This document shows, piece after piece, positions 31,303 through 53,114 of a DNA stretch of 53,114 bases (position 1 is the stretch's first letter; the number at the start of each line of letters is the position of its first letter). Under the pieces are notes generated by a model. That model had not been told where the DNA came from, ran no database searches, and worked only from the letters and a program-made list of their open reading frames with translations. Both the position numbers and the translations under genes were made by a program. The DNA is from an uncultured Bacteroidales bacterium (GTDB taxonomy: Bacteria > Bacteroidota > Bacteroidia > Bacteroidales > UBA12077), in NCBI GenBank assembly GCA_964504155.1, contig CAZDCZ010000005.1, positions 1 to 53,114 of the forward strand, in the 5' to 3' direction.

Positions 31303-31323
31303 AAATGATTGTTTTCTCCTGCT

Positions 31324-31348
31324 GGCACGGACAACATGTCCGCGCCAG
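31324..31348 (-). repeat. REP hairpin downstream of the RAYT gene (inverted relative to the upstream REP)
   Basis: Reverse complement CTGGCGCGGACATGTTGTCCGTGCC is identical (25/25) to 53029-53053. Confidence 0.85.
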
Positions 31349-33084: not shown

Positions 33085-33183
33085 TCTTCACCCCTCTATA
33101 TTCTATTTTTATCCCTAAATTATTGTATTATCCCTATTTTCCTTTCATTTACCACCTTTTCTTTCAGCGAAATAATTCATTAC

Positions 33184-33191
33184 TAATTTTG
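33184..33191 (+). promoter_or_regulatory. Bacteroidota -7 promoter element immediately before the GT2 start codon
   Basis: TAATTTTG ends 4 nt before the ATG at 33196. Confidence 0.45.
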
Positions 33192-33195
33192 CAAG

Positions 33196-34999: not shown

Positions 35000-35127
35000 C
35001 TACTGTTGGTAACACCTAAAAATATAAAAGTTCTGTAGAGTAAGGTTTACTGCAGATTTTATATTCAACAAAAAAAATAGTACATTTGGTGAATAGTGCT
35101 AAAAATGAAGATGATAGCAACTGTTAA

Positions 35128-36201: not shown

Positions 36202-37038
36202 AACTCATATTATAATTGGTTAAAAGTTAAGGGTTTGGATAAAACAAAGCCTTCTAAAAAAATCCTTAAAGAAAGAATTAATGCGGTTTTTGAAGAAAGT
36301 CGAGAAATATATGGAAGTTATAGAATTCAAACAATGCTTGAAAGAGAGAATTTAATTTATTCACGATCATATATAGGCTTGCTAATGAAAGAAATGGGCT
36401 TAATAAGTATCCTAAAAAGAAAATTCGTAGTTACAACAGATTCAAAACATTCATTTCCAATAGCAAAAAACGAATTGGACAGAGACTTTACCAGTTTAGA
36501 ACTAGGTAAAAAATGGGTGTCTGATATTACTTATATACGCGTTAAAGATAACTAGAATTATCTTACAACCATAATGGATCTTGCTGACAGAAAAATGTAG
36601 GATGGGCTTTAAGTGAAGATATGACAACTAAGAATACCGTTATGAAGGCTTGGTTATCAGCTCGTCAAAACAGAAATATTATTGAAGGATTGTTTTTCAT
36701 TCAGATAGATGGGTGCAGTATGCTTCCAATAAAATGACAAGCCTTTTTTCTTATAATAAAAAAATAACACAAAATATGAGTAGAAAAGGAAACTGTTGGG
36801 ATAATGCTGTAGCTGAAAGCTTTTTTAAGACTATTAAACATGAATGGTTGTATCGATTTAAGTTTAACTCTTACAAGCAATTATATAGATCTATTGAAGA
36901 TTATATTACATGGTATAATACTAAAAGAATTTATTCTAGTTTAGGGTATTTATCTCCTTTAGAAATGGAAATTAAATTAAGAGAAATTATTAAGAAAGCG
37001 GCTTAGTAAAAATAGTCACAAATTTATTAGGTATTCCA
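36202..37038 (+). mobile_element. IS3-family remnant (orfB with stops/frameshifts, right end intact, left part lost)
   Basis: 'SYYNWL', 'YGSYRI', 'WVSDITYIR', 'SRKGNCWDNAVAESFFKTIK', 'WYNTKRIYSSLGYLSP'; ends ...GGTATTCCA at 37038 (TG...CA termini). Confidence 0.85.
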
Positions 37039-37157
37039 AAAATTTAGATTGCAAATTATTTAAAAAAAATTAAATGCCATTCTAAACGAGTTTAAATTTT
37101 ATGACTTTTTAGAGAGGACTCAACACTAATTCTTCTATTTAGAAGATTTAAGAAAAT

Positions 37158-37187
37158 AAAAAAGGGACTCCTGCGGTCCCTTTTTTT
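37158..37187. terminator. Intrinsic terminator
   Basis: AAAAAAGGGAC-TCCTGCG-GTCCCTTTTTT, downstream of the 37231-38499 gene. Confidence 0.75.
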
Positions 37188-37230
37188 GCAGATACATGAT
37201 ACATCAAGTAGTGAAGCAGGAATATTTTTA

Positions 37231-38499
37231 TTAGTGGTTAATATTTATAGTACTTATTAATTCTATATTTTCTAAATCGGAATAATTATATTGATATAAA
37301 CCATTTTCTCCAATTAACATTAATACTTCGTTAAAAGGTATTACATCGAATGCGTGAATGTCGCTAAAACTTGCAATTTTATGCGATGAAATAGTTAAAG
37401 GATCGCTAGTATCATAAATTTTTAATCCTGCATCTCCATCACAAATAAATAAAGTATTATTATCTATACCTAAACCATGAGGATTAGTTAAACCATATGA
37501 TTTTAATAAAGTTGGCGATGAAAGATTGGCAATATTAATAACATCTAATCTGTTTGTTGTCCCTCCACAATTATTTCCCGAGCGTAAAGTAACATAAGCT
37601 AATGTATCAGCAACAACAACCGGATCACAACTTGTAATATGAGAATATTGCGATAGCTTTATCGGATTAATGGGGTCGCTAATATCATATATTAATAAAC
37701 CATTTTGTGAACCAATAAACAAATTGTTTTCATGTGGAAAAATTGTTTCAATATTCCACCCTACATAGCAAGTCGAAGTATTTATTATGTTACCGGAATT
37801 CGATATGTCAATAATATTTAAGAAAGAATTATCTATTGTAAATAAGTAATCATTATATATAGTAAATCTAGCCATCGAGCCTCCTACGCCAAAAGAACTG
37901 CCGGCACTACTCATACTATAACTTGACGATGAATTTGTCATAATACCATCAAATTTATAATCCAAATATATTGGATAGTTAGGAGTGTTAACTTCTTTTT
38001 CAATTTCTTTAATTTCCCAAGCAATCACAACTCCCTTGTCTCTATCAACTTCGTCGACGCGATAATTTTCGTCGTATGGAGGTAAAGTATAAGGAATAAT
38101 GTCTTCCAAACGATCTACTTCGCTAATATTTTGTAAATCTGAAATATCTAAAGCCACAATGTCAATATAACTATCTGCGTACAAAATATCGTCTTTTATT
38201 GCAATATCAACATTGCCGGGGATAGAAATAAATGCAATATTTTCAGGATTCGATGGGTCTGAATTATCAATTATATGAATTCCCTTCAAATACTCGTTAA
38301 TATAAAGATAATTGTTATAAAAATATATTTTTCCGGTATTTTCTAAGTCTCTTGTTTCAAGTGTTGTAATAGAACTTCGCAAATCTTCGTAAGAAAGATA
38401 TTGAGGCACATTTGCTTTGTACTTTTCAAAAACCTGATCTTCGCACGATTCAAAAGTGGCAAGAATTATTAATAAAATAATAGAAAATTTTAATTTCAT
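37231..38499 (-). CDS. LVIVD-repeat lipoprotein (likely start 38499)
   Basis: Lipobox 'TFESC'; repeats 'GIHIIDNSDPSNP', 'GLLIYDISDPINP', 'GLKIYDTSDP'; 'GVGGSMARF'. Confidence 0.85.
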   Translation of the reverse strand: MKLKFSIILLIILATFESCEDQVFEKYKANVPQYLSYEDLRSSITTLETRDLENTGKIYFYNNYLYINEYLKGIHIIDNSDPSNPENIAFISIPGNVDIAIKDDILYADSYIDIVALDISDLQNISEVDRLEDIIPYTLPPYDENYRVDEVDRDKGVVIAWEIKEIEKEVNTPNYPIYLDYKFDGIMTNSSSSYSMSSAGSSFGVGGSMARFTIYNDYLFTIDNSFLNIIDISNSGNIINTSTCYVGWNIETIFPHENNLFIGSQNGLLIYDISDPINPIKLSQYSHITSCDPVVVADTLAYVTLRSGNNCGGTTNRLDVINIANLSSPTLLKSYGLTNPHGLGIDNNTLFICDGDAGLKIYDTSDPLTISSHKIASFSDIHAFDVIPFNEVLMLIGENGLYQYNYSDLENIELISTININH

Positions 38500-38701
38500 A
38501 AAGCAAAGAGATTCCAAATTATATAATCAAACATATTTTATAGATGTATAATTATTTAAAATGGTTGCGTCGTTTAAATTAATTCTAATAAAATAATAGT
38601 TTTGAGGAAATTTACGCAACCAATTTGTTAAAATGTGCATCTTAACAAATAACATATTAAATATAATTCTCTTTAATTTTATAACTCCTAAAAAAACTAT
38701 T

Positions 38702-39475
38702 ATGTTTAGAAAAATAAGTATTATAAAAAGTTTAGTTATATTATTATTACTTGTTATTAGTACTAAACTATATGCTCAAATCGACAAAGTTGATGTTGTT
38801 TATTTAAAAAACGGAAGTATTATAAAGGGAGAAATTGTTGAAATTAAAACAGATAAATATGTAAAAATAAAAAGTTTATGCGATAATATTTGGGTTTTTA
38901 ATAATACTGATGTCTTAAAAATATTAAAAGAAGATAAAAAAGTAATTGTTGATTCAATCTCCGATTCCCAATTCAAAATAAATGGAGTATTTACTAATTT
39001 TAGCCTGGGATTTTTATATGGTACAGGTAACGAGAATAAGAATCCTCCTTTAAGTATTTTGGTTAGTGGAGGATACAATTTTAATAACAACTTTAGTATT
39101 GGTCTAGCTACCGGAGTTGAATTGCTCGATAATGCATTTGTTCCCGCAATGATTGATTTAAAATATTCTTTTGTAAATAGTAAAGTAAGTCATTTTATAT
39201 TTTTACAAAGTGGATACTCTTTTGTTATAGATGCTCAGAATGATGATATTTACTATTACAACGGTAATAACGAAAGAGAAAATCGGGGAGGTATAGTTAT
39301 TAGCCCCGGTTTTGGTATAAAGTGGAATTTAAATAAGAAAAATGCAATTGCTTTAAGTTTAGGTTATCGTTACCAACAAAATAATTATACATATATTGAT
39401 TATAATAATCAAGAAATTGAAAGATTGGTTAAGTATAATAGAATTTCAGTTAGTTTTGGATATTATTTTAAATAA
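38702..39475 (+). CDS. Outer-membrane beta-barrel protein (likely start 38702)
   Basis: Signal peptide ending LYA|Q; 'DVVYLKNGSIIKGEIVE' N-domain; terminal 'VSFGYYFK'. Confidence 0.7.
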   Translation: MFRKISIIKSLVILLLLVISTKLYAQIDKVDVVYLKNGSIIKGEIVEIKTDKYVKIKSLCDNIWVFNNTDVLKILKEDKKVIVDSISDSQFKINGVFTNFSLGFLYGTGNENKNPPLSILVSGGYNFNNNFSIGLATGVELLDNAFVPAMIDLKYSFVNSKVSHFIFLQSGYSFVIDAQNDDIYYYNGNNERENRGGIVISPGFGIKWNLNKKNAIALSLGYRYQQNNYTYIDYNNQEIERLVKYNRISVSFGYYFK

Positions 39476-39564
39476 AAATAATATTAAAATATTAATTTAA
39501 CTATTGACCTACTAATTAATAAAAACCAAAAGAGAAAATAATAGAATAATTATATTAAAAAATG

Positions 39565-39572
39565 TAATTTTG
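39565..39572 (+). promoter_or_regulatory. Bacteroidota -7 promoter element upstream of the TPR-comA cluster
   Basis: TAATTTTG, 26 nt before the ATG at 39599. Confidence 0.45.
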
Positions 39573-39598
39573 CTGCTTATTTTTAATAGAATTTTAAT

Positions 39599-41005
39599 AT
39601 GAGTGATACTTTTGATGATATATTTTGGGATGATGAAACATCGAACCTAATTGAGAAATACGAGAAAATGTTAGATGAAAATGCTGAATATTTTTTCGAC
39701 ATTTTCGAATTTGAAGATATTATTGACCATTATATATATGTAAAACAAAACGAAGATGCTTTACAAGTAATAGACTATGCTGATAAATTATATCCTTCAG
39801 AAATAAATTTTTCCATAAAAAAAGCACTTGTTTATATCGAACAAAAAGCACCAAATAAAGCATTAGAAACATTAGCATCTATTGAATTATTGGTAAACGG
39901 AGATGTTGATTTTTACTTAATAAAAGGAGAGGCTTTAGTTGGTATTGGAGAATCGCAAAAAGCTAGCGAAATATTTTATTCATTATTCGAAATATCCAAT
40001 GAAGATGATTATTCGAGTTATGCTATAGATATTTTTCAGATATTCGATAAGTATAATGAGCAGTTGCATGCTATAGAATTTTTGAAACTTGCATTTTCTT
40101 TCGATCCTGAAAATATCTCTCTTTTGCACTTTATTGCATATTGTTACGAGCATATCGGACAAAGTAAAAAATCTATTGCTTGTTACAAAGATTTCTTGAA
40201 TGAATATCCATTTTCTGACAATGCCTGGTTTAATCTAGGTATAATGTATTATAATCAAGAGAATTATGAAAAATCAATTGACGCTTTAGAATACGCAATT
40301 GCCATAAATCCCGATAGTATTATTGCTTATTTTCACTTAGCTAATGCCTATTTTGCAAACGATATGTTTAAAAAAGCAATTATTTATTACAAAGAGTTTC
40401 TTAAATACGAAGAAGATGATCCTATTGTTGAATATTATTTAGGACAATGCTATAATTTTCTTGGAAACAAAGACCTGGCACTTAAACATTACGAGAGATG
40501 TATTAAAGAAGATAAATCATATGCTTATGCATATTTCGAAATAGCAAAAAATTATGAACAAAATGACGAAAATGAAAAAGCTTTAAAAACAATAAGCAAT
40601 GCTATTGAGCTGGAGCCCGATAATGATGAATTTTATAATGTAAAAGGAATTATTTATTTTAACACAAATGAATTTAACCAAGCTGCAGAATTGTTCGAAA
40701 AAGCATTAGAAATAAATGCCTACGAAAAAGAATACATTATAAATTTGTCTGATACATATTTAAAATTAGAAGAATATAACAAAGTAATAGAATTATTTGA
40801 AGCTAAAAAAGAAATTCTTAACGACTCATTAATATATTTTAGATTAGCATCATGTTATTTGTTAATTAATAAAAAGCCTTTGGCAATAAGTAATTTCGAA
40901 AAAGGATTAAAGTTAAATTATTCAAATTATACAGAATTATTGTATCTTTACCCTGAAGCATTAAAAATTAAAGAAATTAAGAAGCTTCTGGAAAAATATA
41001 AATAA
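39599..41005 (+). CDS. Tetratricopeptide repeat protein
   Basis: Numerous TPR units ('NAWFNLGIMYY...AIAINP'); acidic N-terminus 'FFDIFEFEDIIDHY'. Confidence 0.88.
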   Translation: MSDTFDDIFWDDETSNLIEKYEKMLDENAEYFFDIFEFEDIIDHYIYVKQNEDALQVIDYADKLYPSEINFSIKKALVYIEQKAPNKALETLASIELLVNGDVDFYLIKGEALVGIGESQKASEIFYSLFEISNEDDYSSYAIDIFQIFDKYNEQLHAIEFLKLAFSFDPENISLLHFIAYCYEHIGQSKKSIACYKDFLNEYPFSDNAWFNLGIMYYNQENYEKSIDALEYAIAINPDSIIAYFHLANAYFANDMFKKAIIYYKEFLKYEEDDPIVEYYLGQCYNFLGNKDLALKHYERCIKEDKSYAYAYFEIAKNYEQNDENEKALKTISNAIELEPDNDEFYNVKGIIYFNTNEFNQAAELFEKALEINAYEKEYIINLSDTYLKLEEYNKVIELFEAKKEILNDSLIYFRLASCYLLINKKPLAISNFEKGLKLNYSNYTELLYLYPEALKIKEIKKLLEKYK

Positions 41006-41019
41006 AAAATATATCTATT

Positions 41020-41790
41020 ATGAATTTTGAATTACCCTATTTGCCCAATCGTACAAGTAAACCTAGAAAAAACGGAATAACCATGATGATGGATAAGGGA
41101 TTGAGCCTTAATCAGGTAGAAGACTTTGTCGAAGCATGTGGTGAGTTTACCGATGTTGTTAAATTTGGTTTTGGAACATCATTAATTACAAATAAGTTAG
41201 AAGAAAAACTTAAATTATATTGCGAAGCAGATATTACTCCATATTTTGGTGGTACTCTTTTCGAAATGTTTATTGTTCGTAATATGTTTGATGAGTATAG
41301 AAAATTACTCGATAAATATAATATGGAATTATGTGAAGTTTCTGATGGCTCAATGTCAATGCCACATAACGAAAAATTAGAATATATAAATAAACTATCA
41401 TCACAAGTAACTGTGCTTTCCGAAGTAGGGTCTAAAGATGCAAGTCTTATTATTCCTCCTGATGAATGGGTTTCACAAATGAAATCAGAATTAGAAGCAG
41501 GCTCTTGGAAAGTTATTGCCGAAGCACGAGAGAGTGGTACTATTGGGATATATAATAAAGATGGTTCTGCAAACATAGAATTAATCAATGATATTAAAAA
41601 TCACATTAATATGGATAATGTTCTTTGGGAAGCTCCATTAAAAAATCAACAAGTGTGGTTTATAAAAAATATGGGATTTGATGTGAATCTTGGAAATATT
41701 GCTTATGATGGAATTATTTCTCTTGAAGCATTAAGACAAGGATTACGTGGAGATACTTTTTTTGAATTCTTACCTGAGAATTTAAAATAA
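41020..41790 (+). CDS. comA: Phosphosulfolactate synthase (ComA family)
   Basis: 'GITMMMDKG', 'VKFGFGTS', 'EVSDGS', 'VLSEVGSK', 'VIAEARESG', 'WEAP', 'VNLGNI', 'LEALRQGLRGDT'. Confidence 0.92.
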   Translation: MNFELPYLPNRTSKPRKNGITMMMDKGLSLNQVEDFVEACGEFTDVVKFGFGTSLITNKLEEKLKLYCEADITPYFGGTLFEMFIVRNMFDEYRKLLDKYNMELCEVSDGSMSMPHNEKLEYINKLSSQVTVLSEVGSKDASLIIPPDEWVSQMKSELEAGSWKVIAEARESGTIGIYNKDGSANIELINDIKNHINMDNVLWEAPLKNQQVWFIKNMGFDVNLGNIAYDGIISLEALRQGLRGDTFFEFLPENLK

Positions 41791-41894
41791 AATACTGTTA
41801 AATTATTATTATTAAGCCTGTTAATAGACATCTAGCAGGCTTTCTATTTAAAATAAAACTTAGTTATTTAATTTATATACATTAAATAAAGCAT

Positions 41895-42821
41895 ATGTTT
41901 AAAAAATATTTTATTTCTTTCGTTAAAGGATTTGGAATGGGATCGGCAAATGTAATCCCCGGAGTATCAGGAGGAACAATAGCTCTTATTACAGGTATTT
42001 TCGAAAGAATAATTAATGCAGTAAAATCGTTTGATGGTGTTGCAATTAAATTGCTTTTTAATTGGGAAATTAAAAAATTAATAAAACATATAGATTTATA
42101 CTTTCTATTATCGGTATTTTTAGGAATGGTAGTTAGCATAATATCGTTTGCCCATGTACTCGATTATCTTTTTACAAACTTTCCAATATATATATGGGCG
42201 TATTTTTTTGGATTAATCCTTGCCTCAGTATATTTTGTGGGAAAAACAATAGAAAAGATTGATATAAGCGTTATAATAGCATTTATTATCGGAGCTAGTA
42301 TAGCAATTATAATTTCTATTCTAAATCCTGCAGAACAAAACGATTCATTTTTATATCTTGTTTTATGTGGAGTAATTGCTATTTGTAGTATGATACTTCC
42401 CGGACTTTCGGGCTCGTTTATATTAATATTGTTAGGGAATTACGAATTAGTTATGATTGATGCTGTAAATAATTTCGAAATAAAAATTTTACTTCCTGTA
42501 ATTATTGGTGCTGTTATTGGACTAATTTTGTTTTCTCATTTTTTATCATGGGTATATAAAAAATATAAAAATCAAACAATTTCTGTTTTAACAGGTTTTA
42601 TTCTTGGTTCTTTAAGTATTTTGTGGCCTTGGAAAAACGAAGTATATAAAATGGATAACTTTGGAAATTATGTTCTCAAAAATGGAGATAAAGTAATACA
42701 AAGCTATACTAAATATATTCCAGATTCATTTAATTTAGAAGTTATAATAGCTATTTCTCTTATGATTGTTGGAGTTGTAACAATATGTATAATAGAAAAA
42801 CTTGCACAACAAAAAAAATAG
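41895..42821 (+). CDS. DUF368 family membrane protein (undecaprenyl-phosphate translocase family)
   Basis: Two 'PGVSGG'/'PGLSGS' re-entrant motifs; 'GLILAS'; 'GFILGSL..LWPW'. Confidence 0.9.
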   Translation: MFKKYFISFVKGFGMGSANVIPGVSGGTIALITGIFERIINAVKSFDGVAIKLLFNWEIKKLIKHIDLYFLLSVFLGMVVSIISFAHVLDYLFTNFPIYIWAYFFGLILASVYFVGKTIEKIDISVIIAFIIGASIAIIISILNPAEQNDSFLYLVLCGVIAICSMILPGLSGSFILILLGNYELVMIDAVNNFEIKILLPVIIGAVIGLILFSHFLSWVYKKYKNQTISVLTGFILGSLSILWPWKNEVYKMDNFGNYVLKNGDKVIQSYTKYIPDSFNLEVIIAISLMIVGVVTICIIEKLAQQKK

Positions 42822-42835
42822 ATAAAGCAAAATTT

Positions 42836-43585
42836 ATGAAATTGTATGGACTTATTGGTAAATCGTTAGGGCATTCTTTTTCTGCCTTATATTTTAACGA
42901 GAAATTTAAAAAAGAAGGTATTACTAATTCACTATACAAACTTTATCAGCTAAATTTTATTGACGAAATTGTTTCGCTCCTAAAAAACAACAAGAAAATA
43001 TATGGTTTAAATGTTACAATACCTTATAAGCAAAACATTATTCCATTTTTAGATGAAATTGATATTGCTGCTAAAGAAATTGGAGCCGTTAATACTATAA
43101 AGATTAATTATTGCAATAATAAAACCTATTTAAAAGGATATAATACCGATTGCTCAGGATTTATACGTAGCATAAAACCGTTTTTGAACGATAGCAAAAT
43201 AAACGCACTGGTATTAGGAACAGGAGGAAGTTCTAAAGCTGTTCAATATGCACTGAAAGAGCTTGGAATAGAATTTTGTTTAGTGTCCCGAAAAAAAACA
43301 TCAGAAAAACAATTTTTATATAAAGAACTTACTAAAACTATTCTCGATTCTCATAGATTAATAATTAATACTACCCCTTTAGGAATGTTTCCAAATATTG
43401 ATGAATCTCCTGATATTCCGTATCAATTCATTACAGCTAAACATTTGCTGTACGATTTAATTTACAACCCAAAACAAACAGCTTTTCTTAAACAAGGAAT
43501 AAAGCATAATGCTCAAATTATTAACGGATTAGAAATGCTAAAATTTCAAGCTGATGATTCATGGAAAATATGGACAAGCAAATAA
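42836..43585 (+). CDS. aroE: Shikimate dehydrogenase (likely start 42836)
   Basis: 'GHSFS', 'GLNVTIPYKQ', 'GAVNT', 'GYNTD', 'LGTGGSSKAV', 'NTTPLGM', 'DLIYNP'. Confidence 0.94.
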   Translation: MKLYGLIGKSLGHSFSALYFNEKFKKEGITNSLYKLYQLNFIDEIVSLLKNNKKIYGLNVTIPYKQNIIPFLDEIDIAAKEIGAVNTIKINYCNNKTYLKGYNTDCSGFIRSIKPFLNDSKINALVLGTGGSSKAVQYALKELGIEFCLVSRKKTSEKQFLYKELTKTILDSHRLIINTTPLGMFPNIDESPDIPYQFITAKHLLYDLIYNPKQTAFLKQGIKHNAQIINGLEMLKFQADDSWKIWTSK

Positions 43586-43722
43586 AATTATAAGCAAACA
43601 TTGAATTATTTGTTGTGTAACACATTTATAGGCGATATATTTCCTAAGGAAAGGAAAAATGTTTCGCCAAATTTTGCTATCTTTAAACTTTATTTTCATA
43701 AACTATAAACAATTGATATACA

Positions 43723-44724
43723 ATGTATTTACTTGACGAAATAAAGAAAAAAGCAAAGAAACATAATAAGAAAATTGTTCTGCCTGAATCAACCGAAGAA
43801 AGAACTTTAAAAGCTGCCGATGAATTATTAGCAGAAGGTATTGCTCAAATAATATTAATTGGTGATACTAACGAAATATTAAACAAAGCGAAAGAGTTCT
43901 CACTCGTGAATATTGAAAAAGCTATCATTGTAAACCCTTTAAATCATGAGAAAAAAGATCATTATATTAATATGATGGTTGAACTTAGAAAAAATAAAGG
44001 ATTAACAAAAGAAGATGCTGCAAAACTTATTGAAGATCCTTTATACCTTGCAACATTAATGATAAAAAATGGAGATGCCGATGGAGAAGTTGCAGGCGCA
44101 CAAAATGCTACTGGAGATGTTTTAAGACCAGCATTTCAATACGTAAAAACTAAACCCGGAATTAGTGTTGTTTCCGGTGCTTTTATTATGATTCTTAAAG
44201 ATAAAGAATTTGGTGAAAATGGAATGCTAGTTTTTGCCGATTGTGCTGTTCATCCTAATCCTAATGCAAAAGAACTTGCCGAAATTGCCGTTGCAACTGC
44301 CGAAACAACAAAAGCAATTGCAGGTTTCGAACCAAAAGTTGCTATGTTGAGTTTTTCAACCAAAGGTAGTGCTAAACACGAAATGGTCGATAAAGTTGTT
44401 GAAGCAACTAGAATTGCTAAAGAAATGAATCCATCATTATTAATCGATGGAGAATTACAAGCTGATGCTGCAATTATTGAAGCTATTGGAAAGAAAAAAG
44501 CTCCCGACAGTAAAATTGCCGGACAAGCAAATGTATTAGTTTTTCCAACTCTCGAAACCGGAAATATTACATATAAACTTGTTCAACGATTGGCTCATGC
44601 TGAAGCTGTTGGTCCTGTTTTACAAGGTATGGCTGCACCAATTAATGACTTGTCTCGTGGTTGTTCTGTTAGCGATATTGTAAATCTTGTTGCTATTACT
44701 GCTAACCAAGCTGCAGGTGAATAA
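43723..44724 (+). CDS. pta: Phosphate acetyltransferase
   Basis: 'IVLPESTEER', 'FADCAVHPNP', 'LSFSTKGSA', 'DGELQADAA', 'INDLSRGCS'. Confidence 0.95.
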   Translation: MYLLDEIKKKAKKHNKKIVLPESTEERTLKAADELLAEGIAQIILIGDTNEILNKAKEFSLVNIEKAIIVNPLNHEKKDHYINMMVELRKNKGLTKEDAAKLIEDPLYLATLMIKNGDADGEVAGAQNATGDVLRPAFQYVKTKPGISVVSGAFIMILKDKEFGENGMLVFADCAVHPNPNAKELAEIAVATAETTKAIAGFEPKVAMLSFSTKGSAKHEMVDKVVEATRIAKEMNPSLLIDGELQADAAIIEAIGKKKAPDSKIAGQANVLVFPTLETGNITYKLVQRLAHAEAVGPVLQGMAAPINDLSRGCSVSDIVNLVAITANQAAGE

Positions 44725-44765
44725 TTTTAATTTTCTCTTAAAATAAATATAATAAAAAATAAAAA

Positions 44766-45974
44766 ATGAAAATACTTGTTTTAAACTGTGGAAGTTCGTC
44801 AATAAAATACCAATTATTAAATATGGACAATTCTGATAATTCTGATGTGTTAGCCTCAGGAATAATTGAAAGAATTGGTTTAGATGAAGGACAATTAAAA
44901 CACAAAACCTTCGATAATAGAAATTATTCTTTAACAACTCCTGTACCCAATCATACTAAAGGAATTGACTATATTCTCGAAGCATTATTGTCGGAAGAAT
45001 ATGGTGTAATAAAATCTGTTGAAGAAATTTCAGCTGTCGGACATAGAGTTGCTCATGGTGGACCATATTTCTCCGATAGTGTTCTTGTAACTGATGATGT
45101 AAAAGAAAAAATAAAAGAATGTATAGAATTAGCACCATTACATAATCCTGCTAACTTAAAAGGAATATTAGCAATGGAGAAAATTTTACCGGGAGTGTCT
45201 CAAGTTGCTGTATTCGATACATCTTTTCATCAAACAATGGAGCCAAAGGCATATCTTTACGGACTACCATATGAGTATTTCGAAAAATATAAAATCAGAA
45301 GATATGGTTTCCACGGAACTAGCCATAAATATGTTGCCGAGAAAGCTTGTAAATTAGCCGGATGGGATTGGAAAGATAAAAAAGTTATTTCGTGTCATCT
45401 TGGAAATGGAGCTTCTATCGATGCAATAGACCATGGTATATCTGTTGATACTTCGATGGGATTTACACCTGTTGCAGGTTTATTAATGGGAACAAGAGCC
45501 GGAAATATTGATCTTGGAGCTTTGCTTTATATTGCCGAAAAAGAAAATCTATCAATCAAAGAAACAAACGACTTAATTAACAAAAAAAGTGGTTTATTAG
45601 GAATATCCGGAGTATCTTCCGACATGCGCGATATAGAAAATGCAGCTGCAAATAATAATGAAAGAGCAAAAATAGCACTTGAAATGTTTGTGTATAGAGT
45701 AAAAAAATATATTGGATCTTATGCTGCTATTATGGGAGGTGTAGATTTAATACTATTTACCGGTGGTATTGGCGAAAATGGTTGCGAAACAAGAAGAGAT
45801 GTTTGTAAAGGTCTCGAATTTCTAGGGGTCGATTTCGATTTAGAAGCTAATAAAGGTAAACGAGGAATTGATTTTGAATTAACAAAAAAAGATTCTACAA
45901 CAAAAGTTTTTGTTGTAACTACAAACGAAGAATTAGTTATAGCTAAAGATACTCAGAGAATTGTTGGAGAATAA
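44766..45974 (+). CDS. ackA: Acetate kinase
   Basis: 'LVLNCGSSSIKYQL', 'GHRVAHGG', 'APLHNP', 'RRYGFHGTSH', 'HLGNGAS', 'FTGGIGEN'. Confidence 0.96.
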   Translation: MKILVLNCGSSSIKYQLLNMDNSDNSDVLASGIIERIGLDEGQLKHKTFDNRNYSLTTPVPNHTKGIDYILEALLSEEYGVIKSVEEISAVGHRVAHGGPYFSDSVLVTDDVKEKIKECIELAPLHNPANLKGILAMEKILPGVSQVAVFDTSFHQTMEPKAYLYGLPYEYFEKYKIRRYGFHGTSHKYVAEKACKLAGWDWKDKKVISCHLGNGASIDAIDHGISVDTSMGFTPVAGLLMGTRAGNIDLGALLYIAEKENLSIKETNDLINKKSGLLGISGVSSDMRDIENAAANNNERAKIALEMFVYRVKKYIGSYAAIMGGVDLILFTGGIGENGCETRRDVCKGLEFLGVDFDLEANKGKRGIDFELTKKDSTTKVFVVTTNEELVIAKDTQRIVGE

Positions 45975-45999
45975 ATAATAATAAATAAAATTATAATAA

Positions 46000-46896
46000 A
46001 TGATTTTAAAATCCTTAGACGAGTTAGTTACTCTTGCCAAAAGTAAAGAAACAAGAAGATTAGCTGTTGCAGCTGCCGATGATAAAGCAGTTCTTGAAGC
46101 AGTGAAAGCTGCTTATAAACAAGATATAATAGTTCCTGTTCTTGTTGGAAATAAAGAAAATATTAAGAAAATCTGTAAAAAAATAGATTTTGATATTAAA
46201 GATATAGATATCTATAATGAACTCGATCCTTCTAAATCATGTATTAAGGCAGTTTCTTTAATTAAAGAAAATAAGGCTGATATATTAATGAAAGGTTTAG
46301 TAAGTACTGCTCCATTACTAAAAGCAGTTTTAAATAAAGAGAATGGATTAAGAAAAGGTGCAACTCTTAGTCATTTTGCATACATAGAAACTCCATATTA
46401 TCATAAGTTAATTGGTATTACTGATGCTGCAATGAATATTGCTCCTGAATTAATGGAGAAAATAGATATTATTAATAACTCTGTAGATGCATTACATCTT
46501 TTAGGAATAGAAAATCCAAAAGTCGCTGTAGTAGGTCCTTTAGAAGTAGTAAATCCGAAAATCGAATCTACTACTCATGCTGCAATATTATCTATTATGA
46601 ACAAAAGAAAGCAAATTAATGGTTGTATTATTGATGGACCATTTGCTATAGATAATGCAGTTTCGAAAGAAGCTGCCGAACATAAAGGTATAATTAGCGA
46701 AGTAGCAGGTGATGCAGATATATTATTAGCTCCTGATTTGAATAGTGGTAATATTTTATATAAAACAATGATGTTTCTCGGTGGTAGTACCTCGGCTGCA
46801 GTTATTGTTGGAGCAAAAGTGCCAATAGTATTAACTTCAAGAGCCGATACCGATAAAAGTAAAATGATGTCGATTGCTCTTGCTGCCGCAATGTAG
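46000..46896 (+). CDS. ptb: Phosphate butyryltransferase (branched-chain phosphotransacylase)
   Basis: 'LMKGLVST', 'TDAAMNIAP', 'IIDGPFAIDNA', 'PIVLTSRAD'; short form without the Pta N-terminal extension. Confidence 0.9.
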   Translation: MILKSLDELVTLAKSKETRRLAVAAADDKAVLEAVKAAYKQDIIVPVLVGNKENIKKICKKIDFDIKDIDIYNELDPSKSCIKAVSLIKENKADILMKGLVSTAPLLKAVLNKENGLRKGATLSHFAYIETPYYHKLIGITDAAMNIAPELMEKIDIINNSVDALHLLGIENPKVAVVGPLEVVNPKIESTTHAAILSIMNKRKQINGCIIDGPFAIDNAVSKEAAEHKGIISEVAGDADILLAPDLNSGNILYKTMMFLGGSTSAAVIVGAKVPIVLTSRADTDKSKMMSIALAAAM

Positions 46897-46936
46897 AAAA
46901 TACATTGATTTTATTTATTAAATTAAAATTATTATT

Positions 46937-48013
46937 ATGGAAGAAAATTATATATTAGCAATAAATCCGGGATCAACATCTACGAAAATAGCGGTTTTTA
47001 ATAATACAAAATCAATATTTTTAAAGAATATAAAACATACAGCCGAAGAAATTAATAAATTCGAAAAAATTGTCGATCAATTCGAATTTCGAAAAAATAT
47101 TATTCTAAAAGAATTAGGCGAAGTAGATATCAATATTAATAAGATTGTAGCTGTTGTTGGTAGAGGAGGATTAGTAAAACCAATTGAATCGGGTATTTAT
47201 GAGGTTAATGAAGCAATGCTTACCGATTTAAAAGAAAGTAAATTAGGCGAACATGCAAGTAATCTTGGTGGTTTTATTGCCGACGATATTGCAAAATCAA
47301 TCCCTAATGCCAGAGCATTTATTACCGACCCTGTTGTTGTTGACGAAATGCAAGAAGAAGCTCGATATACAGGAAATGAAAAATTTGTTCGTCATTCAAT
47401 TTTCCATGCCCTAAATCAAAAAGCCGTAGCAAGAAAATATGCTAAATCTGTTGATAAAAAATACGAAGATTTAAATTTAATCATTGCTCATCTTGGTGGT
47501 GGAATATCTGTTGGAGCGCATCATAAAGGAAGAGTTATAGATGTTAACAATGCTTTAGATGGTGAAGGACCATTTTCTCCTGAAAGAACAGGAACACTAC
47601 CTGCAGGACAAGTTGCAAAACTTGCTTTTAGTGGAGAATATACTCATGCCGATATCAAGAAAATGATAAAAGGTGAAGGTGGACTTGTTTCTTATTTGGG
47701 AACTAACGATGCTTATGAAGTAGAAATGATGGTGAAAGATGGAAACAAAAAAGCAAAGATAGTTCAAGATGCTATGTCTTATCAGATAGCAAAAGAAATA
47801 GGAGCATTAGCCACAGTCTTAAAAGGAAAAGTTAATGCTATAATCTTAACTGGTGGAATAGCTTATAATCATATGTTAGTAGAATATGTTAAAGAAATGA
47901 CATCTTTTATTGCTCCGATGATTGTTTATCCGGGCGAAGACGAAATGGAAGCTTTAGCTATGAATGGATTAATGGTTATAAAAGGCGAAATAAATGCTAA
48001 AGAATATAAATAA
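46937..48013 (+). CDS. buk: Butyrate kinase
   Basis: 'INPGSTSTKIA', 'GRGG', 'HASNLG', 'HALNQKA', 'HLGGGISV', 'PFSPER', 'YPGEDEM'. Confidence 0.96.
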   Translation: MEENYILAINPGSTSTKIAVFNNTKSIFLKNIKHTAEEINKFEKIVDQFEFRKNIILKELGEVDININKIVAVVGRGGLVKPIESGIYEVNEAMLTDLKESKLGEHASNLGGFIADDIAKSIPNARAFITDPVVVDEMQEEARYTGNEKFVRHSIFHALNQKAVARKYAKSVDKKYEDLNLIIAHLGGGISVGAHHKGRVIDVNNALDGEGPFSPERTGTLPAGQVAKLAFSGEYTHADIKKMIKGEGGLVSYLGTNDAYEVEMMVKDGNKKAKIVQDAMSYQIAKEIGALATVLKGKVNAIILTGGIAYNHMLVEYVKEMTSFIAPMIVYPGEDEMEALAMNGLMVIKGEINAKEYK

Positions 48014-48035
48014 TCAATTTTAGATTATTATTTTT

Positions 48036-48071
48036 ACCCTTAGGTTTATTATTTTCCTAAGGGTTTTTTTT
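48036..48071 (+). terminator. Intrinsic terminator after buk
   Basis: ACCCTTAGG / CCTAAGGGT stem followed by an 8-T run. Confidence 0.7.
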
Positions 48072-48228
48072 GCTTTTTGCATTAACAGATTTATTTATAC
48101 AAAAACGAAGTGAATTATATGAACCGCAAAATGAACCTTAACAAAGTTAAATAACAATCAAATACAGAAAATATAAATTTCGTAATATCCAAATTTGGGC
48201 TTGTTAAAAAATTCAAAATTAAGATTAT

Positions 48229-48816
48229 ATGAGATTAAGTAAATACATAATTATAATATTAGTTTTTTTTTCTATATCAGTAAATGCATATTCCCAAAAA
48301 GAGGAAAATGAGAACACTAAGAATCTAAAAAACAAAATATTTTTTGGTGGCAGTTTTAGTCTGCAATTTGGTAGTATTACAGCAATAAATATAGATCCTG
48401 TGATTGGCATACGTCCAATCCCTCGTCTTTCAATGGGAATTGGAGGAAAATATCAATATTATAATAGCAGGAGTGATGTATTTAATAATTATGAAACACA
48501 TATTTTTGGAGGAAGCATCTTCTCGGAATATGTAATTATTAAAGATCTTAAAAATGTGTTACCTGTAAAAGTATTTGGAGGCTTATTTACTCATATTGAA
48601 TATGAAGCACTTAGTCTGGAATCGAAATATTTCGATATATCTAATACTAATATAGGAAAAGATAGATTTTGGTTAAATAGTTTTCTTCTTGGTGGAGGAT
48701 ATAATCAAAAAATAGGTAATAAATCATACATATATATATTAGTTTTGTGGAATGTTACCGAAACAATTAATACACCATATACAAATCCTATTTATAGAAT
48801 CGGATTTGTATTTTAA
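48229..48816 (+). CDS. Hypothetical exported beta-barrel-like protein
   Basis: Signal peptide ending AYS|Q; 'FFGGSFSLQFG'; terminal 'RIGFVF'. Confidence 0.6.
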   Translation: MRLSKYIIIILVFFSISVNAYSQKEENENTKNLKNKIFFGGSFSLQFGSITAINIDPVIGIRPIPRLSMGIGGKYQYYNSRSDVFNNYETHIFGGSIFSEYVIIKDLKNVLPVKVFGGLFTHIEYEALSLESKYFDISNTNIGKDRFWLNSFLLGGGYNQKIGNKSYIYILVLWNVTETINTPYTNPIYRIGFVF

Positions 48817-48850
48817 ATTTTATAAAAAAAAACAGTAATATTAATTATAT

Positions 48851-49243
48851 ATGAGTTTAAAAGATAAAATTCTTGTTGCCGATGACGATTTAATGATACA
48901 AAATATTATTCGAGAAGTACTCGATTATCATTACGAATTAGAATTTGCAAGCAATGGAGAAGAGGCTATTGAGATGGCTAATAAAACTATCCCCGATATT
49001 ATATTACTAGATATTATGATGCCTAAAGTAGATGGCTTTGATGTTTGCAAAAAAATACGGAAAGATACACAATTCGATAATACCATAATAATAATGATTA
49101 CAGCTTTATCCGATAGAGATTCAAAAGCAAAAGGATTAAAAATTGGCGCTGATGATTTTATTACAAAACCATTTAATCCGATGGAGCTTAAAGATAAAGT
49201 TAAATTATTATTGCGTTTGAAAAAACGTTTAAAAAACAATTAA
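48851..49243 (+). CDS. Stand-alone response regulator receiver protein
   Basis: 'ILVADDD', 'PDIILLDIMMPKVDGF', 'ADDFITKPF'; no output domain. Confidence 0.88.
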   Translation: MSLKDKILVADDDLMIQNIIREVLDYHYELEFASNGEEAIEMANKTIPDIILLDIMMPKVDGFDVCKKIRKDTQFDNTIIIMITALSDRDSKAKGLKIGADDFITKPFNPMELKDKVKLLLRLKKRLKNN

Positions 49244-49288
49244 GTATAAGCAGTAAATATTAGGTCTTACCTATCGAAAAATAAAAAA

Positions 49289-52216
49289 ATGCAGGCAATA
49301 TTTTCAGAACTAAAATCTCAATTAAAAGGAGATTTATTTACAGATAAAAAAACAAGGATATTATATTCTACCGATGCATCGGCTTATAAAGAAATGCCAA
49401 TAGCTGTTGCTCGTCCGAAAGATAATAATGACATAAAAGAATTATTAAAATTTGCTAAGCATAATAATCTTGCTCTTATTCCTAGAGGAGCAGGAACATC
49501 ATTAGCCGGGCAGGTTGTTGGTAGCGGAATAGTAGTTGATGTGTCGAAATATATGACCGAAATTATTGAACTTAATGAATCGGAAAGTTGGGTAAGAGTT
49601 CAACCGGGAGTAATACCCGATGAGTTAAATACTGCTCTTAAAGCTAAAAATTTATTTTTCGGGCCGGAAACATCAACATCAAACAGATGTGTTATTGGAG
49701 GGATGGTTGGGAATAATGCCTGCGGATTACACTCATTAATATATGGTTCGACTCGCGAACATACATTAGCTGTAAAAGCAATTCTTAGCGACGGTTCTGA
49801 AGTAGAGTTTAAAAATTTATCGAAAAAAGAATATGCAGAAAAACTCTTACTCGATTCTGCTGAAGGTAAAATATATAAGTATTTCGATAAGACATTAAAC
49901 AACAAAGAAAACCAAAACGAAATAAGAAACGAATATCCCGACAAATATTTAACACGAAGAAATACCGGTTATGCTGTTGATTTATTGTTAGATACCGAAA
50001 TCTTTTCCGATTCGAAAGAAAATTTCAATTTGTCGAAACTAATTTGTGGCTCGGAAGGAACCTTAGCCTTTATTACCGAGATAAAATTAAATTTAGTTGC
50101 TGCACCTCCCGAAAATATTGCTATTATAGCAGCTCATTTCAACACAAAAGAAGAAGCCTTTAAAGCTAATATTATTGCATTAAAACATATGCCCAGAGCA
50201 GTAGAATTAATGGATAATACAATTCTTGAACTTACTAAAGGCAATAAAGAACAATTAAAAAACAGATTCTTTGTGCAAGGAAATCCCGGAGCAATTTTAA
50301 TGATTGAGTTTGCATACGAGACAAAACAAGATATTGAAGAAAAATACCTGAATATAGTTAACGATTTAAAATCAGCTAACTATGGCTATTCTTTCCCAAT
50401 AATATATTCTCCCGATACAACAAAAGTGTGGGCACTTAGGAAAGCAGGACTTGGAGTATTGTCGAATTTGAAAGGCGATGGTAAACCTGTATCTGTAATT
50501 GAAGATACCGCTGTAAATCCTGAAGTATTGCCTGATTATATGGCCGATTTTCAAAAAATATTAGACCGATTAAACCTCAATTGTGTTTTTCATGCTCATA
50601 TTGCTACCGGAGAATTGCACCTTCGACCAATACTAAATTTAAAAGACTCTAACGATGTTGAGATGTTCCATACTATTGCACTTGAAGTTGCACAATTAGT
50701 TAAAAAATATAAAGGCTCATTAAGTGGCGAACATGGTGATGGCCGATTGCGTGGAGAGTTTATACCTATAATGATAGGAAATCGCAATTATAATATCTTA
50801 AAAGAAATTAAAAATCTTTTCGATCCGAATAATGTTTTTAATCCCGGCAAGATAATCGATGTTCCTGCAATGAATTCGAATCTACGTTACGAGAAAGATA
50901 AAAAAACAAGAGAAATAGAAACAATATTCGATTTTTCTAAGGTTGGAGGAATAGTTAGAGCAACAGAAAAATGTAATGGAAGTGCCGATTGTCGTAAGTC
51001 GGCAATTGCAGGAGGAACAATGTGTCCGAGTTATATGGCTACGCGCGACGAGCATAATGCAACTCGAGCAAGAGCAAATATATTACGAGAGTTTCTTACT
51101 AATTCGCCAAAAGATAACCCATTCGACCATAAAGAGATAAAAGAAACTATGGATCTTTGTCTTTCGTGTAAGGCTTGTAAATCAGAATGCCCATCGAGTG
51201 TTGATGTTGCTAAATTAAAAGCCGAATTCCTACAGCATTATTACGATAAGCATGGTATTCCCCTTCGAACACGAATGATTGCATATATAAGCAGCATTAA
51301 TAAACTAGCATCGATTGTGCCGGGGATATATAATCTTTTTATGAAAAATAAAATATTCGCGAGTATTGTAATGCGAATGCTAGGTTTTTCTCCAAAAAGA
51401 GATATGCCATTATTACATAAATATACTTTGAAAAAATATACTCGAAAATATATTAACGAATTAAAGACTAAAAATAAAAAAATAAAAAAAGTATATTTAT
51501 TTAACGACGAATTTACTAATTATAACGATACCGATATTGGAATAAAAGCAATACAATTATTAACTCAACTCGGTTATGATGTTGTTATTCCAAAACATGT
51601 TGAAAGCGGTCGTACTTTTCTCTCTAAAGGATTATTACGTATAGCAAAGAAAATTGCTAACAAAAATGTTGATTTTTTAAAAGATATAATTTCTGATGAT
51701 TGCCCGTTAATAGGTATCGAACCTTCTGCAATATTAGCTTTTCGCGACGAATACCCCGAATTAGTCGATAAACATTTAAAAGATGCTGCAAATTTATTAG
51801 CAAAGAATTCGTTTATGTTCGATGAGTTTATTGTTAAGGAAAAAAATATAAATAATATTTCTAGTAATCAATTTACCAAAGAAAGTCAAAAAATAAAACT
51901 TCATGGACATTGTCAACAAAAAGCCGTTGCTTCTACCGAACCAACAAAACAGATGCTTTCGATACCGGATAATTACGAAGTAGAAGAAATTCCTTCGGGA
52001 TGTTGTGGTATGGCAGGCTCTTTTGGTTTCGAGCAAGAACATTACGACTTATCGATGAAAATTGGAGAAATGGTGCTTTTCCCGGCTATTCGCAAAGCAT
52101 CTAAAGAAACTATTATTTCGGCACCCGGAACCAGTTGTCGCGAACAAATAAAAAACGGAACAGGCAAAAAAGCCTTGCATCCAATAGAAATAATGTACGA
52201 TGCTTTAAATATGTAA
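49289..52216 (+). CDS. FAD-binding/(Fe-S)-binding oxidoreductase (D-lactate dehydrogenase-like, YdiJ-type)
   Basis: 'PRGAGTSLAGQ', 'GGMVGNNACG', 'GEHGDGR', ferredoxin 'CLSCKACKSECP', CCG domain 'CCGMAGSFG'. Confidence 0.9.
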   Translation: MQAIFSELKSQLKGDLFTDKKTRILYSTDASAYKEMPIAVARPKDNNDIKELLKFAKHNNLALIPRGAGTSLAGQVVGSGIVVDVSKYMTEIIELNESESWVRVQPGVIPDELNTALKAKNLFFGPETSTSNRCVIGGMVGNNACGLHSLIYGSTREHTLAVKAILSDGSEVEFKNLSKKEYAEKLLLDSAEGKIYKYFDKTLNNKENQNEIRNEYPDKYLTRRNTGYAVDLLLDTEIFSDSKENFNLSKLICGSEGTLAFITEIKLNLVAAPPENIAIIAAHFNTKEEAFKANIIALKHMPRAVELMDNTILELTKGNKEQLKNRFFVQGNPGAILMIEFAYETKQDIEEKYLNIVNDLKSANYGYSFPIIYSPDTTKVWALRKAGLGVLSNLKGDGKPVSVIEDTAVNPEVLPDYMADFQKILDRLNLNCVFHAHIATGELHLRPILNLKDSNDVEMFHTIALEVAQLVKKYKGSLSGEHGDGRLRGEFIPIMIGNRNYNILKEIKNLFDPNNVFNPGKIIDVPAMNSNLRYEKDKKTREIETIFDFSKVGGIVRATEKCNGSADCRKSAIAGGTMCPSYMATRDEHNATRARANILREFLTNSPKDNPFDHKEIKETMDLCLSCKACKSECPSSVDVAKLKAEFLQHYYDKHGIPLRTRMIAYISSINKLASIVPGIYNLFMKNKIFASIVMRMLGFSPKRDMPLLHKYTLKKYTRKYINELKTKNKKIKKVYLFNDEFTNYNDTDIGIKAIQLLTQLGYDVVIPKHVESGRTFLSKGLLRIAKKIANKNVDFLKDIISDDCPLIGIEPSAILAFRDEYPELVDKHLKDAANLLAKNSFMFDEFIVKEKNINNISSNQFTKESQKIKLHGHCQQKAVASTEPTKQMLSIPDNYEVEEIPSGCCGMAGSFGFEQEHYDLSMKIGEMVLFPAIRKASKETIISAPGTSCREQIKNGTGKKALHPIEIMYDALNM

Positions 52217-52336
52217 AATAAATACCAGAGTATTAACTTTATTGAATAGGACACTGCAGGCTTAAACTACAAGATAAAAATTATTATAACTTTGTACGAA
52301 TAATTACAGATTGACAGAATAGATAATATTAAAATT

Positions 52337-52522
52337 ATGAGTAATGCAAAAATATCCATACGTTTTTTTGACGACCGCGAAGTACGAGCCGTTTGGGACG
52401 AACAAAACGCCAAGTGGAGGTTTAGTGTGTTAGATATTGTAGCTTTACTTACCGACAAAGACGACTACACCAAAACCCGCAACTATTGGAAATATCTTAA
52501 AGCCAAATTGAAAAAAAATTAA
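52337..52522 (+). pseudogene. Truncated N-terminal (BRO-N-like) fragment of a Fic-family protein
   Basis: 'SIRFFDDREVRAVWDEQNAKWRFSVLDIV...DDYTKTRNYWKYLKAKLKK' resembles the N-terminus of Bacteroidota Fic proteins; it stops after 61 aa with no HPF motif. TAACTTTG promoter box at 52287-52294. Confidence 0.6.
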
Positions 52523-52638
52523 CAATTATTTTATTGGATAAATAATTGTATTTTTATCGTTCAAACTGGTACACTTTTCAATTATTATAGTGGGTGCTTT
52601 TCAATTAATAAATACAAATGGGATTTGATTGAAAAATA

Positions 52639-52980
52639 ATGTCTAAAACTATATCATACAGAAAACACCTCTCAATATTCCTGATGATTGTATTTTTCAG
52701 CCCCTTGCTGATAAAAGCAACGCATTTTCTGTATGTACACCACGAGCATCATCATATTTCTTTTTCAGACAAACCGGAAGTTAATGAAAAACATAAAAAT
52801 TGCCCGATTTGTGCTTATGAATTTGTTGAATTCATTGATAATGAAAATCCGCAAAATACCTGCAAACCTGAATTCTTTTCAGATTACTATACTTTTCACA
52901 GTCAAAGTGAATGTATAATACTTCCCTTTTACTCATTCAATCTGCGAGCACCACCTGTTGATTTAGAGCATTTATTTTAA
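52639..52980 (+). CDS. Small DUF2946/CruR-like protein with TM helix, His cluster, CxxC and C-terminal RAPP motif
   Basis: 'HLSIFLMIVFFSPLL' TM; 'HHEHHH'; 'CPIC'; 'LRAPP' (nt 52945-52956), 7 residues before the stop. Confidence 0.65.
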   Translation: MSKTISYRKHLSIFLMIVFFSPLLIKATHFLYVHHEHHHISFSDKPEVNEKHKNCPICAYEFVEFIDNENPQNTCKPEFFSDYYTFHSQSECIILPFYSFNLRAPPVDLEHLF

Positions 52981-53028
52981 TTCATTAATTTATTAACAGG
53001 TCGTTGGTTTTGCTAAATAGTATTAACC

Positions 53029-53053
53029 CTGGCGCGGACATGTTGTCCGTGCC
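53029..53053 (+). repeat. REP hairpin, third copy
   Basis: Identical to the reverse complement of 31324-31348. Confidence 0.85.
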
Positions 53054-53059
53054 TTTATC

Positions 53060-53114
53060 GAAAACAATCATTTCTAATTTTGAATTAGTGGTTTATAATC
53101 TAGCACAAAAACAT
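53060..53114 (-). mobile_element. 3' end of a second RAYT copy, cut by the window edge
   Basis: 55/55 identical to the reverse complement of 31262-31316, including the RAYT stop codon (CTA at 53074-53076). Confidence 0.85.

Follow-up and report, generated by a model that had tools for sequence, protein, structure and literature searches.

The window analyzed here, a stretch of 53,114 nucleotides from an uncultured Bacteroidales bacterium, contains a RAYT pseudogene that lies between two inverted REP hairpins, and it ends within a further copy of the same unit on the opposite strand (Table 1). The read-through translation of the pseudogene scores 98 bits with the NCBIfam model REP_Tyr_transpos (cutoff 80) and 29 bits with the Pfam model Y1_Tnp (cutoff 23). 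The NCBIfam model transpos_IS200 yields 21 bits, which is below its cutoff of 55. The motifs SHLH and EYIHNNP, representing the HUH motif and the region of the catalytic tyrosine, respectively, are kept in the translation. Judged by homology and by its local anatomy with inverted flanking REPs, the gene is a RAYT.

The full unit comprises about 0.69 kb and consists of a REP hairpin, a spacer, the RAYT pseudogene, a leader and an inverted REP. The stretch from REP to REP, which contains the pseudogene, has a length of about 633 nt. The left and right REPs are reverse complements of each other and share the same core. This core is present three times in the 53-kb window as compared to 0.24 occurrences expected from shuffled sequences, and none of the 100 shuffles reached three. 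All three cores are linked to a RAYT; the third one, at 30674-30686 and thus next to the opposite end of the gene, is a version with two mismatches. The intact homologue L104, which stems from another sample and shows 81% amino acid identity, is bordered by nearly the same REP.

The lesions of the pseudogene were called by comparison with two intact homologues of 191 amino acids, L104 and L105, to which its protein sequence is 81-83% identical. They are listed individually in Table 1; the ancestral stop codon of the gene is the TGA at 31306-08. Since long open reading frames (975 and 428 amino acids) are present elsewhere in the window, the standard genetic code is in use. Among the GTDB representative genomes, in which the species itself is absent, the best RAYT match is 58% identical, and no record was retrieved for the 67-amino acid ORF encoded by the RAYT allele of the window.

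Table 1. Features of the REP-RAYT-REP units and their surroundings in the window
Feature	Positions	Strand	Evidence and remarks
Left REP hairpin, A-linked unit, CCCGCTAGCCCCGACATGTTGTCGGTGC	30663..30690	+	inverted relative to the right REP; folds at -10.4 kcal/mol, z = -4.1; homology between units starts here
Leader, left REP to RAYT start	30691..30739	+	copy-specific
RAYT pseudogene	30740..31308	+	profile matches on read-through translation
Lesion 1	near 30763, near codon 9	+	7-nt deletion, frameshift
Lesion 2	31036-38	+	TGG>TTG (W->L)
Lesion 3	31102-04	+	CAA>TAA stop
Lesion 4	31150-52	+	GAA>TAG stop
Lesion 5	31300-02	+	TGG>TAG stop
55-nt stretch matched by the window end	31262..31316	+	repeat search and allele table
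Spacer TCCTGCT and right REP (31324-31349) of locus R_a	31317..31349	+	L098, L099, L003, L005; REP hairpin -13.1 kcal/mol, z = -5.6
Truncated IS1595-family pseudogene adjoining the REP	31350..31925	+	IS1595 profile, 156 bits
Segment B, 21.7 kb, bracketed by two inverted units	31350..53027	.	orientation relative to flank A opposite in L001
Right REP of locus R_b	53028..53053	-	inverted orientation; hairpin -10.8 kcal/mol, z = -5.0
R_b-specific spacer	53054..53059	-	TTTATC on the + strand, GATAAA on the gene strand
Final 55 nt of the RAYT pseudogene at R_b	53060..53114	-	includes TAG and the original TGA stop; contig end

The final 86 bases of the window represent the margin of another, genuine REP-RAYT-REP copy. 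A previous reading of this DNA from its sequence only (hereafter the sequence-only reading) had described the last 55 nt as a reverse-complement match to the 3' end of the RAYT gene. A repeat search of the window confirmed this match between 53060-53114 and 31262-31316 at 55 of 55 nt (100%). The adjacent REP, which had been given as 25 of 25 nt identical, is indeed identical; its extent has to be corrected, as the hairpin from 53028 to 53053 is the reverse complement of 31324-31349 over 26 of 26 nt. Also as described, the spacers between REP and RAYT are unalike at the two sites, with TCCTGCT at 31317-31323 (reverse complement AGCAGGA) as compared to TTTATC at 53054-53059. Outside of the REP the flanking sequences are unrelated (AGAAAGAG... 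versus the reverse complement of ...AGTATTAAC), and the claim that the similarity halts at the outer REP boundary holds, since the homology does not extend beyond the REP on either side. A unitig covering this junction (53045-53089) is present at single-copy depth in the runs X1-X7.

Assemblies of the same organism, a Bacteroidales-like bacterium, were found by exact-protein look-ups in hydrothermal-vent and marine-sediment metagenomes. In addition, a DNA scan of JGI metagenomes returned four loci, three of which were useful, L100 being a distant relative. L001, an ENA MEGAHIT contig of 48.7 kb, is 100% identical to positions 39289-53114 of the window. Past the window edge it contains the REP, TTTATC, the complete RAYT and the left REP, and it then enters the reverse complement of window positions 31349->22156, i.e. 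the acyltransferase flank, here designated flank A. The JGI contigs L008, L009 and L010 run from the gene for a 113-amino acid protein into the RAYT for 215-560 nt, and L008 and L009 match the window's RAYT copy for at least 215 nt. The match had been expected to end soon after the window edge in case the interpretation as a second copy was wrong. It carries on in L001 and L008-L010, and in two of these contigs (L001 and L010) it extends through the whole RAYT to the left REP, so that a second copy of full length is established.

L098 shows the order B-left (window 35254->31350), IS fragment, REP, TCCTGCT, full RAYT, left REP and flank C. Flank C is represented in L098 by 7 kb of new sequence that opens with the terminator of a Tsp45I-type DNA methyltransferase gene. 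Two loci are thereby resolved with both flanks, namely R_a, consisting of flank C, the unit and the IS1595 fragment with B-left, and R_b, consisting of the acyltransferase flank A, the unit and B-right. The similarity between R_a and R_b extends from CCCGCT in the left REP to ...GCGCCAGG in the right REP. Within the body, they differ at about 11-14 positions, including a private 2-bp deletion in R_a, and they also differ by their distinct spacers and by the rearranged leader of R_a, which shows a deletion and a tandem duplication when the window, L001 and L012-14 are aligned with L097/L098. In those assemblies where R_a keeps its own alleles, the final stretch that is identical between R_a and R_b before the spacers part is 31262-31316. 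Directly upstream of it, R_a reads ...CCTCAATG and R_b ...CTTCGATG.

In agreement with this, partial contigs that stem from two NCBI MAGs and from six or more additional samples contain either flank A (L012-14) or B-right (L008-10) with R_b alleles, or B-left (L003, L005, L099) or flank C (L097) with R_a alleles. In seven runs, the depth of flank C and of the two right-hand junction unitigs equals that of the window's unique single-copy DNA. Because of this equal single-copy depth, R_a and R_b are to be placed in one genome. Alleles are shuffled between the copies across samples; the R_a leader is, for instance, found with an R_b allele in X3, and R_b is found both with and without a 4-bp deletion, depending on the sample.

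In an alignment to the intact homologues L104 and L105, all five lesions turned out to be common to R_a and R_b. A check for the frameshift and the stop codons of the first copy in the second one, which had been proposed in the sequence-only reading, thus gave a positive result. Furthermore, the two internal stop codons are invariant across all copies in X5-X7 as judged by unitig depth, with no intact-codon variant in these runs. Private changes other than the 2-bp deletion of R_a are the 4-bp deletion together with a TAG>TAA change in L001 and L010, and the insertion of a G in L010, L012 and L013.

When the RAYT in the window is compared with both loci, it carries R_b-type alleles together with flank A at the discriminating sites up to 31261, and it has a GC combination of its own at 30903-04. 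Beyond the shared 55 nt, the window carries the spacer, the REP and the flank of R_a. In all other assemblies, the TCCTGCT junction, which is present at single-copy depth, is joined to a RAYT with R_a alleles and to flank C. These assemblies, two of them complete (L001, L098) and about ten partial, all fit the order C - R_a - B - R_b(inverted) - A(inverted). From this distribution of alleles, it appears quite probable that the first copy in the window is a chimeric thread in which the body of R_b has been joined to the spacer, REP and B-left flank of R_a. The segment 31262-31316 is then likely the point where the assembly path switched copies, and the body of the first copy and the window end probably stem from one and the same copy in the genome. 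R_a-specific sequence in the window would probably be restricted to 31317-31349. The k=31 unitigs (Logan) are too short to link base 31261 to the spacer at 31317, 56 nt away.

The path coming from B-right with its TTTATC spacer meets the TCCTGCT path at the first shared 55-mer, which is 53060-53114. A contig end 55 nt into the repeat would fit a break in a de Bruijn graph with k=55. The suggestion that the repeat may explain why the sequence ends here is borne out in this way, as the two spacer paths merge at the shared 55-mer. A 56-kb contig from P0241 is a longer version of the A-flank contig, and it likewise halts in the RAYT.

The IS1595 fragment that adjoins R_a begins at about position 400 of the insertion sequence and has a 37-nt internal deletion. 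Over 31350-31940, the window differs from seven of seven other assemblies at one common set of sites. Five of these assemblies span the fragment and show about 38 such differences, whereas L004 and L006 cover it in part and agree with the other five over that part. At the same time, the fragment shares 99-100% identity with the second IS copy within the window, at 35180-36190. In the 3.3 kb of unique DNA beside the fragment, only 0-3 sites differ. The IS fragment appears to have been overwritten by alleles of the second copy, and hence this assembler collapsed repeat variants, which likewise suggests that the contig was mis-threaded. The second copy itself is an IS1595-family transposase pseudogene (156 bits on read-through) with several stop codons and frameshifts. 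It is directly followed by remnants of an IS3-family transposase (36235-37006; HTH_21, rve_3/rve_2), so that the two form a nest of decayed insertion sequences. L002, a MAG contig (GCA_054000615.1), has a full-length IS1595 element at B-left without REP or RAYT. As the missing 5' part of the insertion sequence is absent from the other side of R_a, this locus did not arise by simple insertion into the IS.

The order seen in the window may alternatively be real, in which case recombination between the inverted 0.6-kb copies would have flipped the 21.7-kb segment B, and the window on the one hand and L001/L098 on the other would be natural isomers. Inverted repeats with about 98% identity at a distance of 21.7 kb are a classical substrate for inversion, the shuffling of alleles across samples indicates that the copies do recombine, and the contig end would look identical after such an event. 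However, the order is unique to the window, whereas the two complete and about ten partial contigs, which come from other samples and assemblers, fit the other order. Moreover, the exchange would have to be confined to the last 55 of about 590 nt of homology, as defined in assemblies where R_a keeps its own alleles, and the same contig demonstrably holds collapsed repeat sequence in its IS fragment. We consider an inversion to be somewhat unlikely for these reasons.

Two inverted units flank the 21.7-kb segment regardless of whether the window is chimeric or inverted. The GC skew tracks gene orientation and does not decide on the orientation of segment B. As a practical consequence, the 0.7-kb units break every short-read assembly of this organism, and in this contig they very probably led to an artificial inversion of 21.7 kb as well as to collapsed repeats. 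The gene order around 30.7-31.9 kb in the window is therefore not to be trusted.

The copy number of the unit was read from the depth of k=31 unitigs in X5-X7 and not from resolved loci. Single-copy depth in these runs is about 150x, 33x and 312x, respectively, and the unique flanks examined show no polymorphism, with only one fixed SNP. Unitigs of the window-identical RAYT body, both internal stop codons included, reach 3.4-5.7x single copy, and the right-junction variants together amount to about 7-8x. The exact R_b junction is present at 1.2-1.4x in X5 and X7 and at about 0.9x in X6, its one-mismatch variant at 4.0-4.2x and its two-mismatch variant at 0.7-1x single copy. The R_a junction is found at 0.8-1.3x. 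Additional flanks were detected at the outer REP boundaries, flank D at a right REP and flank E at a left REP. Thus, at least three loci are supported by distinct flanks, and the k=31 unitig depth in these runs, in each of which a single strain dominates, points to roughly 6-8 units per genome. The earlier statement that the unit is multi-copy is in line with these data, which comprise R_a and R_b, each resolved with both flanks, flanks D and E, and a depth of about 6-8 units.

REP unitigs have a depth of about 7-12x single copy as compared to about 4-8x for the gene. Since the depth of the REPs is about twice the number of units, there is no population of free REPs or REPINs. No REP without linkage to a RAYT was found in about 72 kb of sequence, i.e. 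the 53-kb window and about 19 kb of flank C.

Wherever a flank was seen, homology between the copies ends at the REPs, i.e. at flanks A, C and E on the left and at B-right, the IS fragment and flank D on the right. The same behaviour is found in relatives within this RAYT clade: L044 and L045, which belong to one long-read Bacteroidales MAG, are 99.3% identical over 692 nt and have their own bounding hairpins, and the pairs L017/L069 and L060/L079 show 99% and 96.7% identity, respectively. As the lesions of R_a and R_b are common to both and every copy has the two internal stops, the gene cannot have moved by itself after these lesions had occurred. We infer from the shared lesions that the unit multiplied after its transposase had died. 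Of the proposal that REP-tnpA-REP behaves as a multi-copy mobile unit, the multi-copy state and the REP boundaries are hence retained; with a dead gene, self-movement after the lesions is excluded, and any transposition would have had to occur in trans, unless the copies spread by recombination.

In such a process, the dead unit would be copied as a non-autonomous element, comparable to a very long REPIN with the dead gene as its spacer. A related Y1/HUH RAYT would probably have acted in trans by cutting at the REP hairpins and pasting single-stranded DNA. Gene conversion among the copies would shuffle the alleles afterwards, and the present-day copies would constitute only dispersed 0.7-kb homology. 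The involvement of a trans-acting enzyme is plausible because the pairing of REP and enzyme is conserved, the REP at L104 being nearly the same. An intact RAYT of this organism itself did not turn up; the closest intact proteins all stem from other samples, and their identity does not exceed 83%.

Taken together, we regard it as likely that the window contains members of a small, REP-bounded family of dead RAYTs that multiplied after inactivation, and that the contig was mis-threaded by this repeat. It is also conceivable, albeit rather doubtful at present, that we are dealing with an undomesticated RAYT lineage in which the whole cassette is mobile and the REPs are its ends only, a dead copy having been amplified to about 6-8 copies as a giant REPIN in trans. 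If true, this lineage would be a living intermediate between insertion sequences of the IS200/IS605 type and the arrangement of a single-copy RAYT plus REPINs.

The copies could also have arisen without transposition, by ordinary duplication or recombination of an intact or dead gene, with gene conversion homogenising them and spreading the lesions. Several observations are compatible with this. A clean pair of filled and empty sites was not found in the syntenic loci L108 and L111-114 or in L002. L108 (92% nucleotide identity) is without the unit, but its homology is lost at the stop codon of the acyltransferase gene and the downstream genes differ. In the few flanks available, no target duplication was seen at R_a or R_b and no target motif is shared, the left flanks reading ..AAAAT and ..CTTAA; neither an empty site nor a target motif nor an excision product has been seen. 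Alleles are shuffled among the copies, so that gene conversion could indeed spread lesions, and R_a adjoins a truncated IS rather than interrupting it cleanly. On the other hand, the halt of homology at the outer REPs at each flank seen is unexpected for segmental duplication, REP-bounded duplication recurs in three unrelated relatives, and 6-8 dispersed copies of 0.69 kb are hard to reach without a mobility mechanism. An origin without transposition is therefore improbable in our view, and we favor multiplication of the dead unit after inactivation. That the second copy is an assembly artefact and the genome holds a single RAYT only, as a stub of exactly 55 nt, typical for a k-mer overlap at contig ends, might insinuate, is practically ruled out and was already refuted by L001 and L098, because two distinct junctions of spacer and REP each occur at single-copy depth in seven runs and independent assemblies contain two complete units that have different flanks and are set apart by about 11-14 private differences.

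RAYTs are the textbook example of a domesticated single-copy transposase that spreads REP or REPIN sequences rather than itself. RAYT/TnpA_REP genes with flanking REPs have reportedly been described in E. coli and in Pseudomonas fluorescens SBW25, in work attributed to Nunvar in 2010, Bertels and Rainey in 2011 and Ton-Hoang in 2012. The unit described here resembles these systems in that a homologue of Y1 HUH transposases lies between two imperfect, GC-rich inverted hairpins and in that the REP is conserved together with the gene across species, as seen with L104. It differs from them in that the REPs are present at the ends of the unit only, without a dispersed REP/REPIN population, in that the gene is present in several near-identical copies rather than once, and in that the reading frame is not intact, both resolved copies being pseudogenes. 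Moreover, the host belongs to the Bacteroidales and not to the proteobacteria.

With IS200/IS605 elements such as IS608 and ISDra2, the unit shares a size of about 0.7 kb, a Y1 transposase gene, hairpins at both ends, and several near-identical copies at unrelated sites with homology that ends at the hairpins and without visible terminal duplication. In contrast to these elements, its protein scores below the cutoff of the IS200 model (21 as compared to 55 bits), its end hairpins are mutually inverted whereas the ends of IS200/IS605 elements lie on one strand, and the few flanks available here show no conserved target tetranucleotide. Like a REPIN, the unit is bounded by a pair of inverted REPs, does not encode a functional transposase and occurs in several copies. 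Unlike a REPIN, it has a spacer of about 633 nt, the dead RAYT, instead of tens of nt, its copy number is below ten instead of tens to hundreds, and no partner RAYT was found for it. In its behaviour, the unit thus resembles an element of the IS200/IS605 type or a REPIN of great length, but it belongs to neither class. It would be a useful case, found in nature, of mobilisation in trans and of those RAYTs that come closest to insertion sequences.

The statement in the sequence-only reading that RAYTs are usually single-copy is correct insofar as duplicates are rare; such duplicates are, however, already documented. Bertels et al. (2017, PMC5581495) report a copy with at least 95% identity on the same replicon for 7.7% of the RAYTs; for Group 1 the figure is 6.3%, with only about 12 occurrences of the flanking 16-mer. 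These duplicates resemble the units described here in the presence of near-identical copies on one genome, in a REP count in the order of ten and in their IS-like character. They differ from them in that the amplified copies analyzed here have inactivating lesions in common. Recent RAYT duplication with few REPs is therefore already on record, and the point added by our analysis is that lesions are common to the amplified copies.

Further repeats were observed in the vicinity of the units. One of them is about 110 nt long and has two copies in the window, at 52508-52618 on the plus strand and at about 30505-30625 on the minus strand, with 76% column identity. Both copies contain the exact 19-mer GATAAATAATTGTATTTTT and two tandem half-sites (..CTGGTAnCTTTTCnATTA..), and in the gene order of the other assemblies both adjoin R_b in the same orientation. 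The unitig depth of this element is 20-40x single copy in X1-X4. A search of the whole window with Rfam, the 110-nt element included, gave no match. At position 30657, a contig seen in several runs leaves flank A and continues with GAAGTGTAAAAGGACAAAA instead of the left REP (L015 4506-4524); this alternative junction has no match in the window or in the other loci analyzed.

A terminator-like hairpin repeat of 55 nt (AACACCTAAAAATATAAAAGTTCTGTAGAGYAAGGTYTRCTRCAG followed by a T-run) is located at 35011-35065 of the window, downstream of an NMO-family gene, and at 4605-4659 of L098, at the end of the methyltransferase gene next to R_a. Its depth of up to about 50x single copy in X7 identifies this repeat as the genome's truly abundant extragenic palindrome. 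A relationship of flank C and window positions 35011-35065 as paralogous segments was considered and rejected, as the similarity is due to this separate hairpin repeat. Flank C of R_a (L098 4632-11649; L101 1-7364) opens with a Tsp45I-type restriction-modification pair. When further contigs with flank C were sought by means of the methyltransferase, only restriction-modification genes with 89% identity from other organisms were retrieved. In these organisms, the 89%-identical Tsp45I-type pair lies in a defence island with GmrSD and SIR2+HerA.

On the side of flank A, an ORF of 686 amino acids at about 26071-28456 has no Pfam match and is absent from L108, which is otherwise collinear with the window from 19.8 to 30.5 kb. 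Five copies of a repeat of about 90 nt with 60-77% identity, apparently within a K/E-rich coding region, are present at 15121-16242. Segment B contains, at about 43700-48000 (L001 4435-8725), two consecutive tandem pairs of a phosphate acyltransferase (PTA_PTB) and an acetate/butyrate kinase gene.
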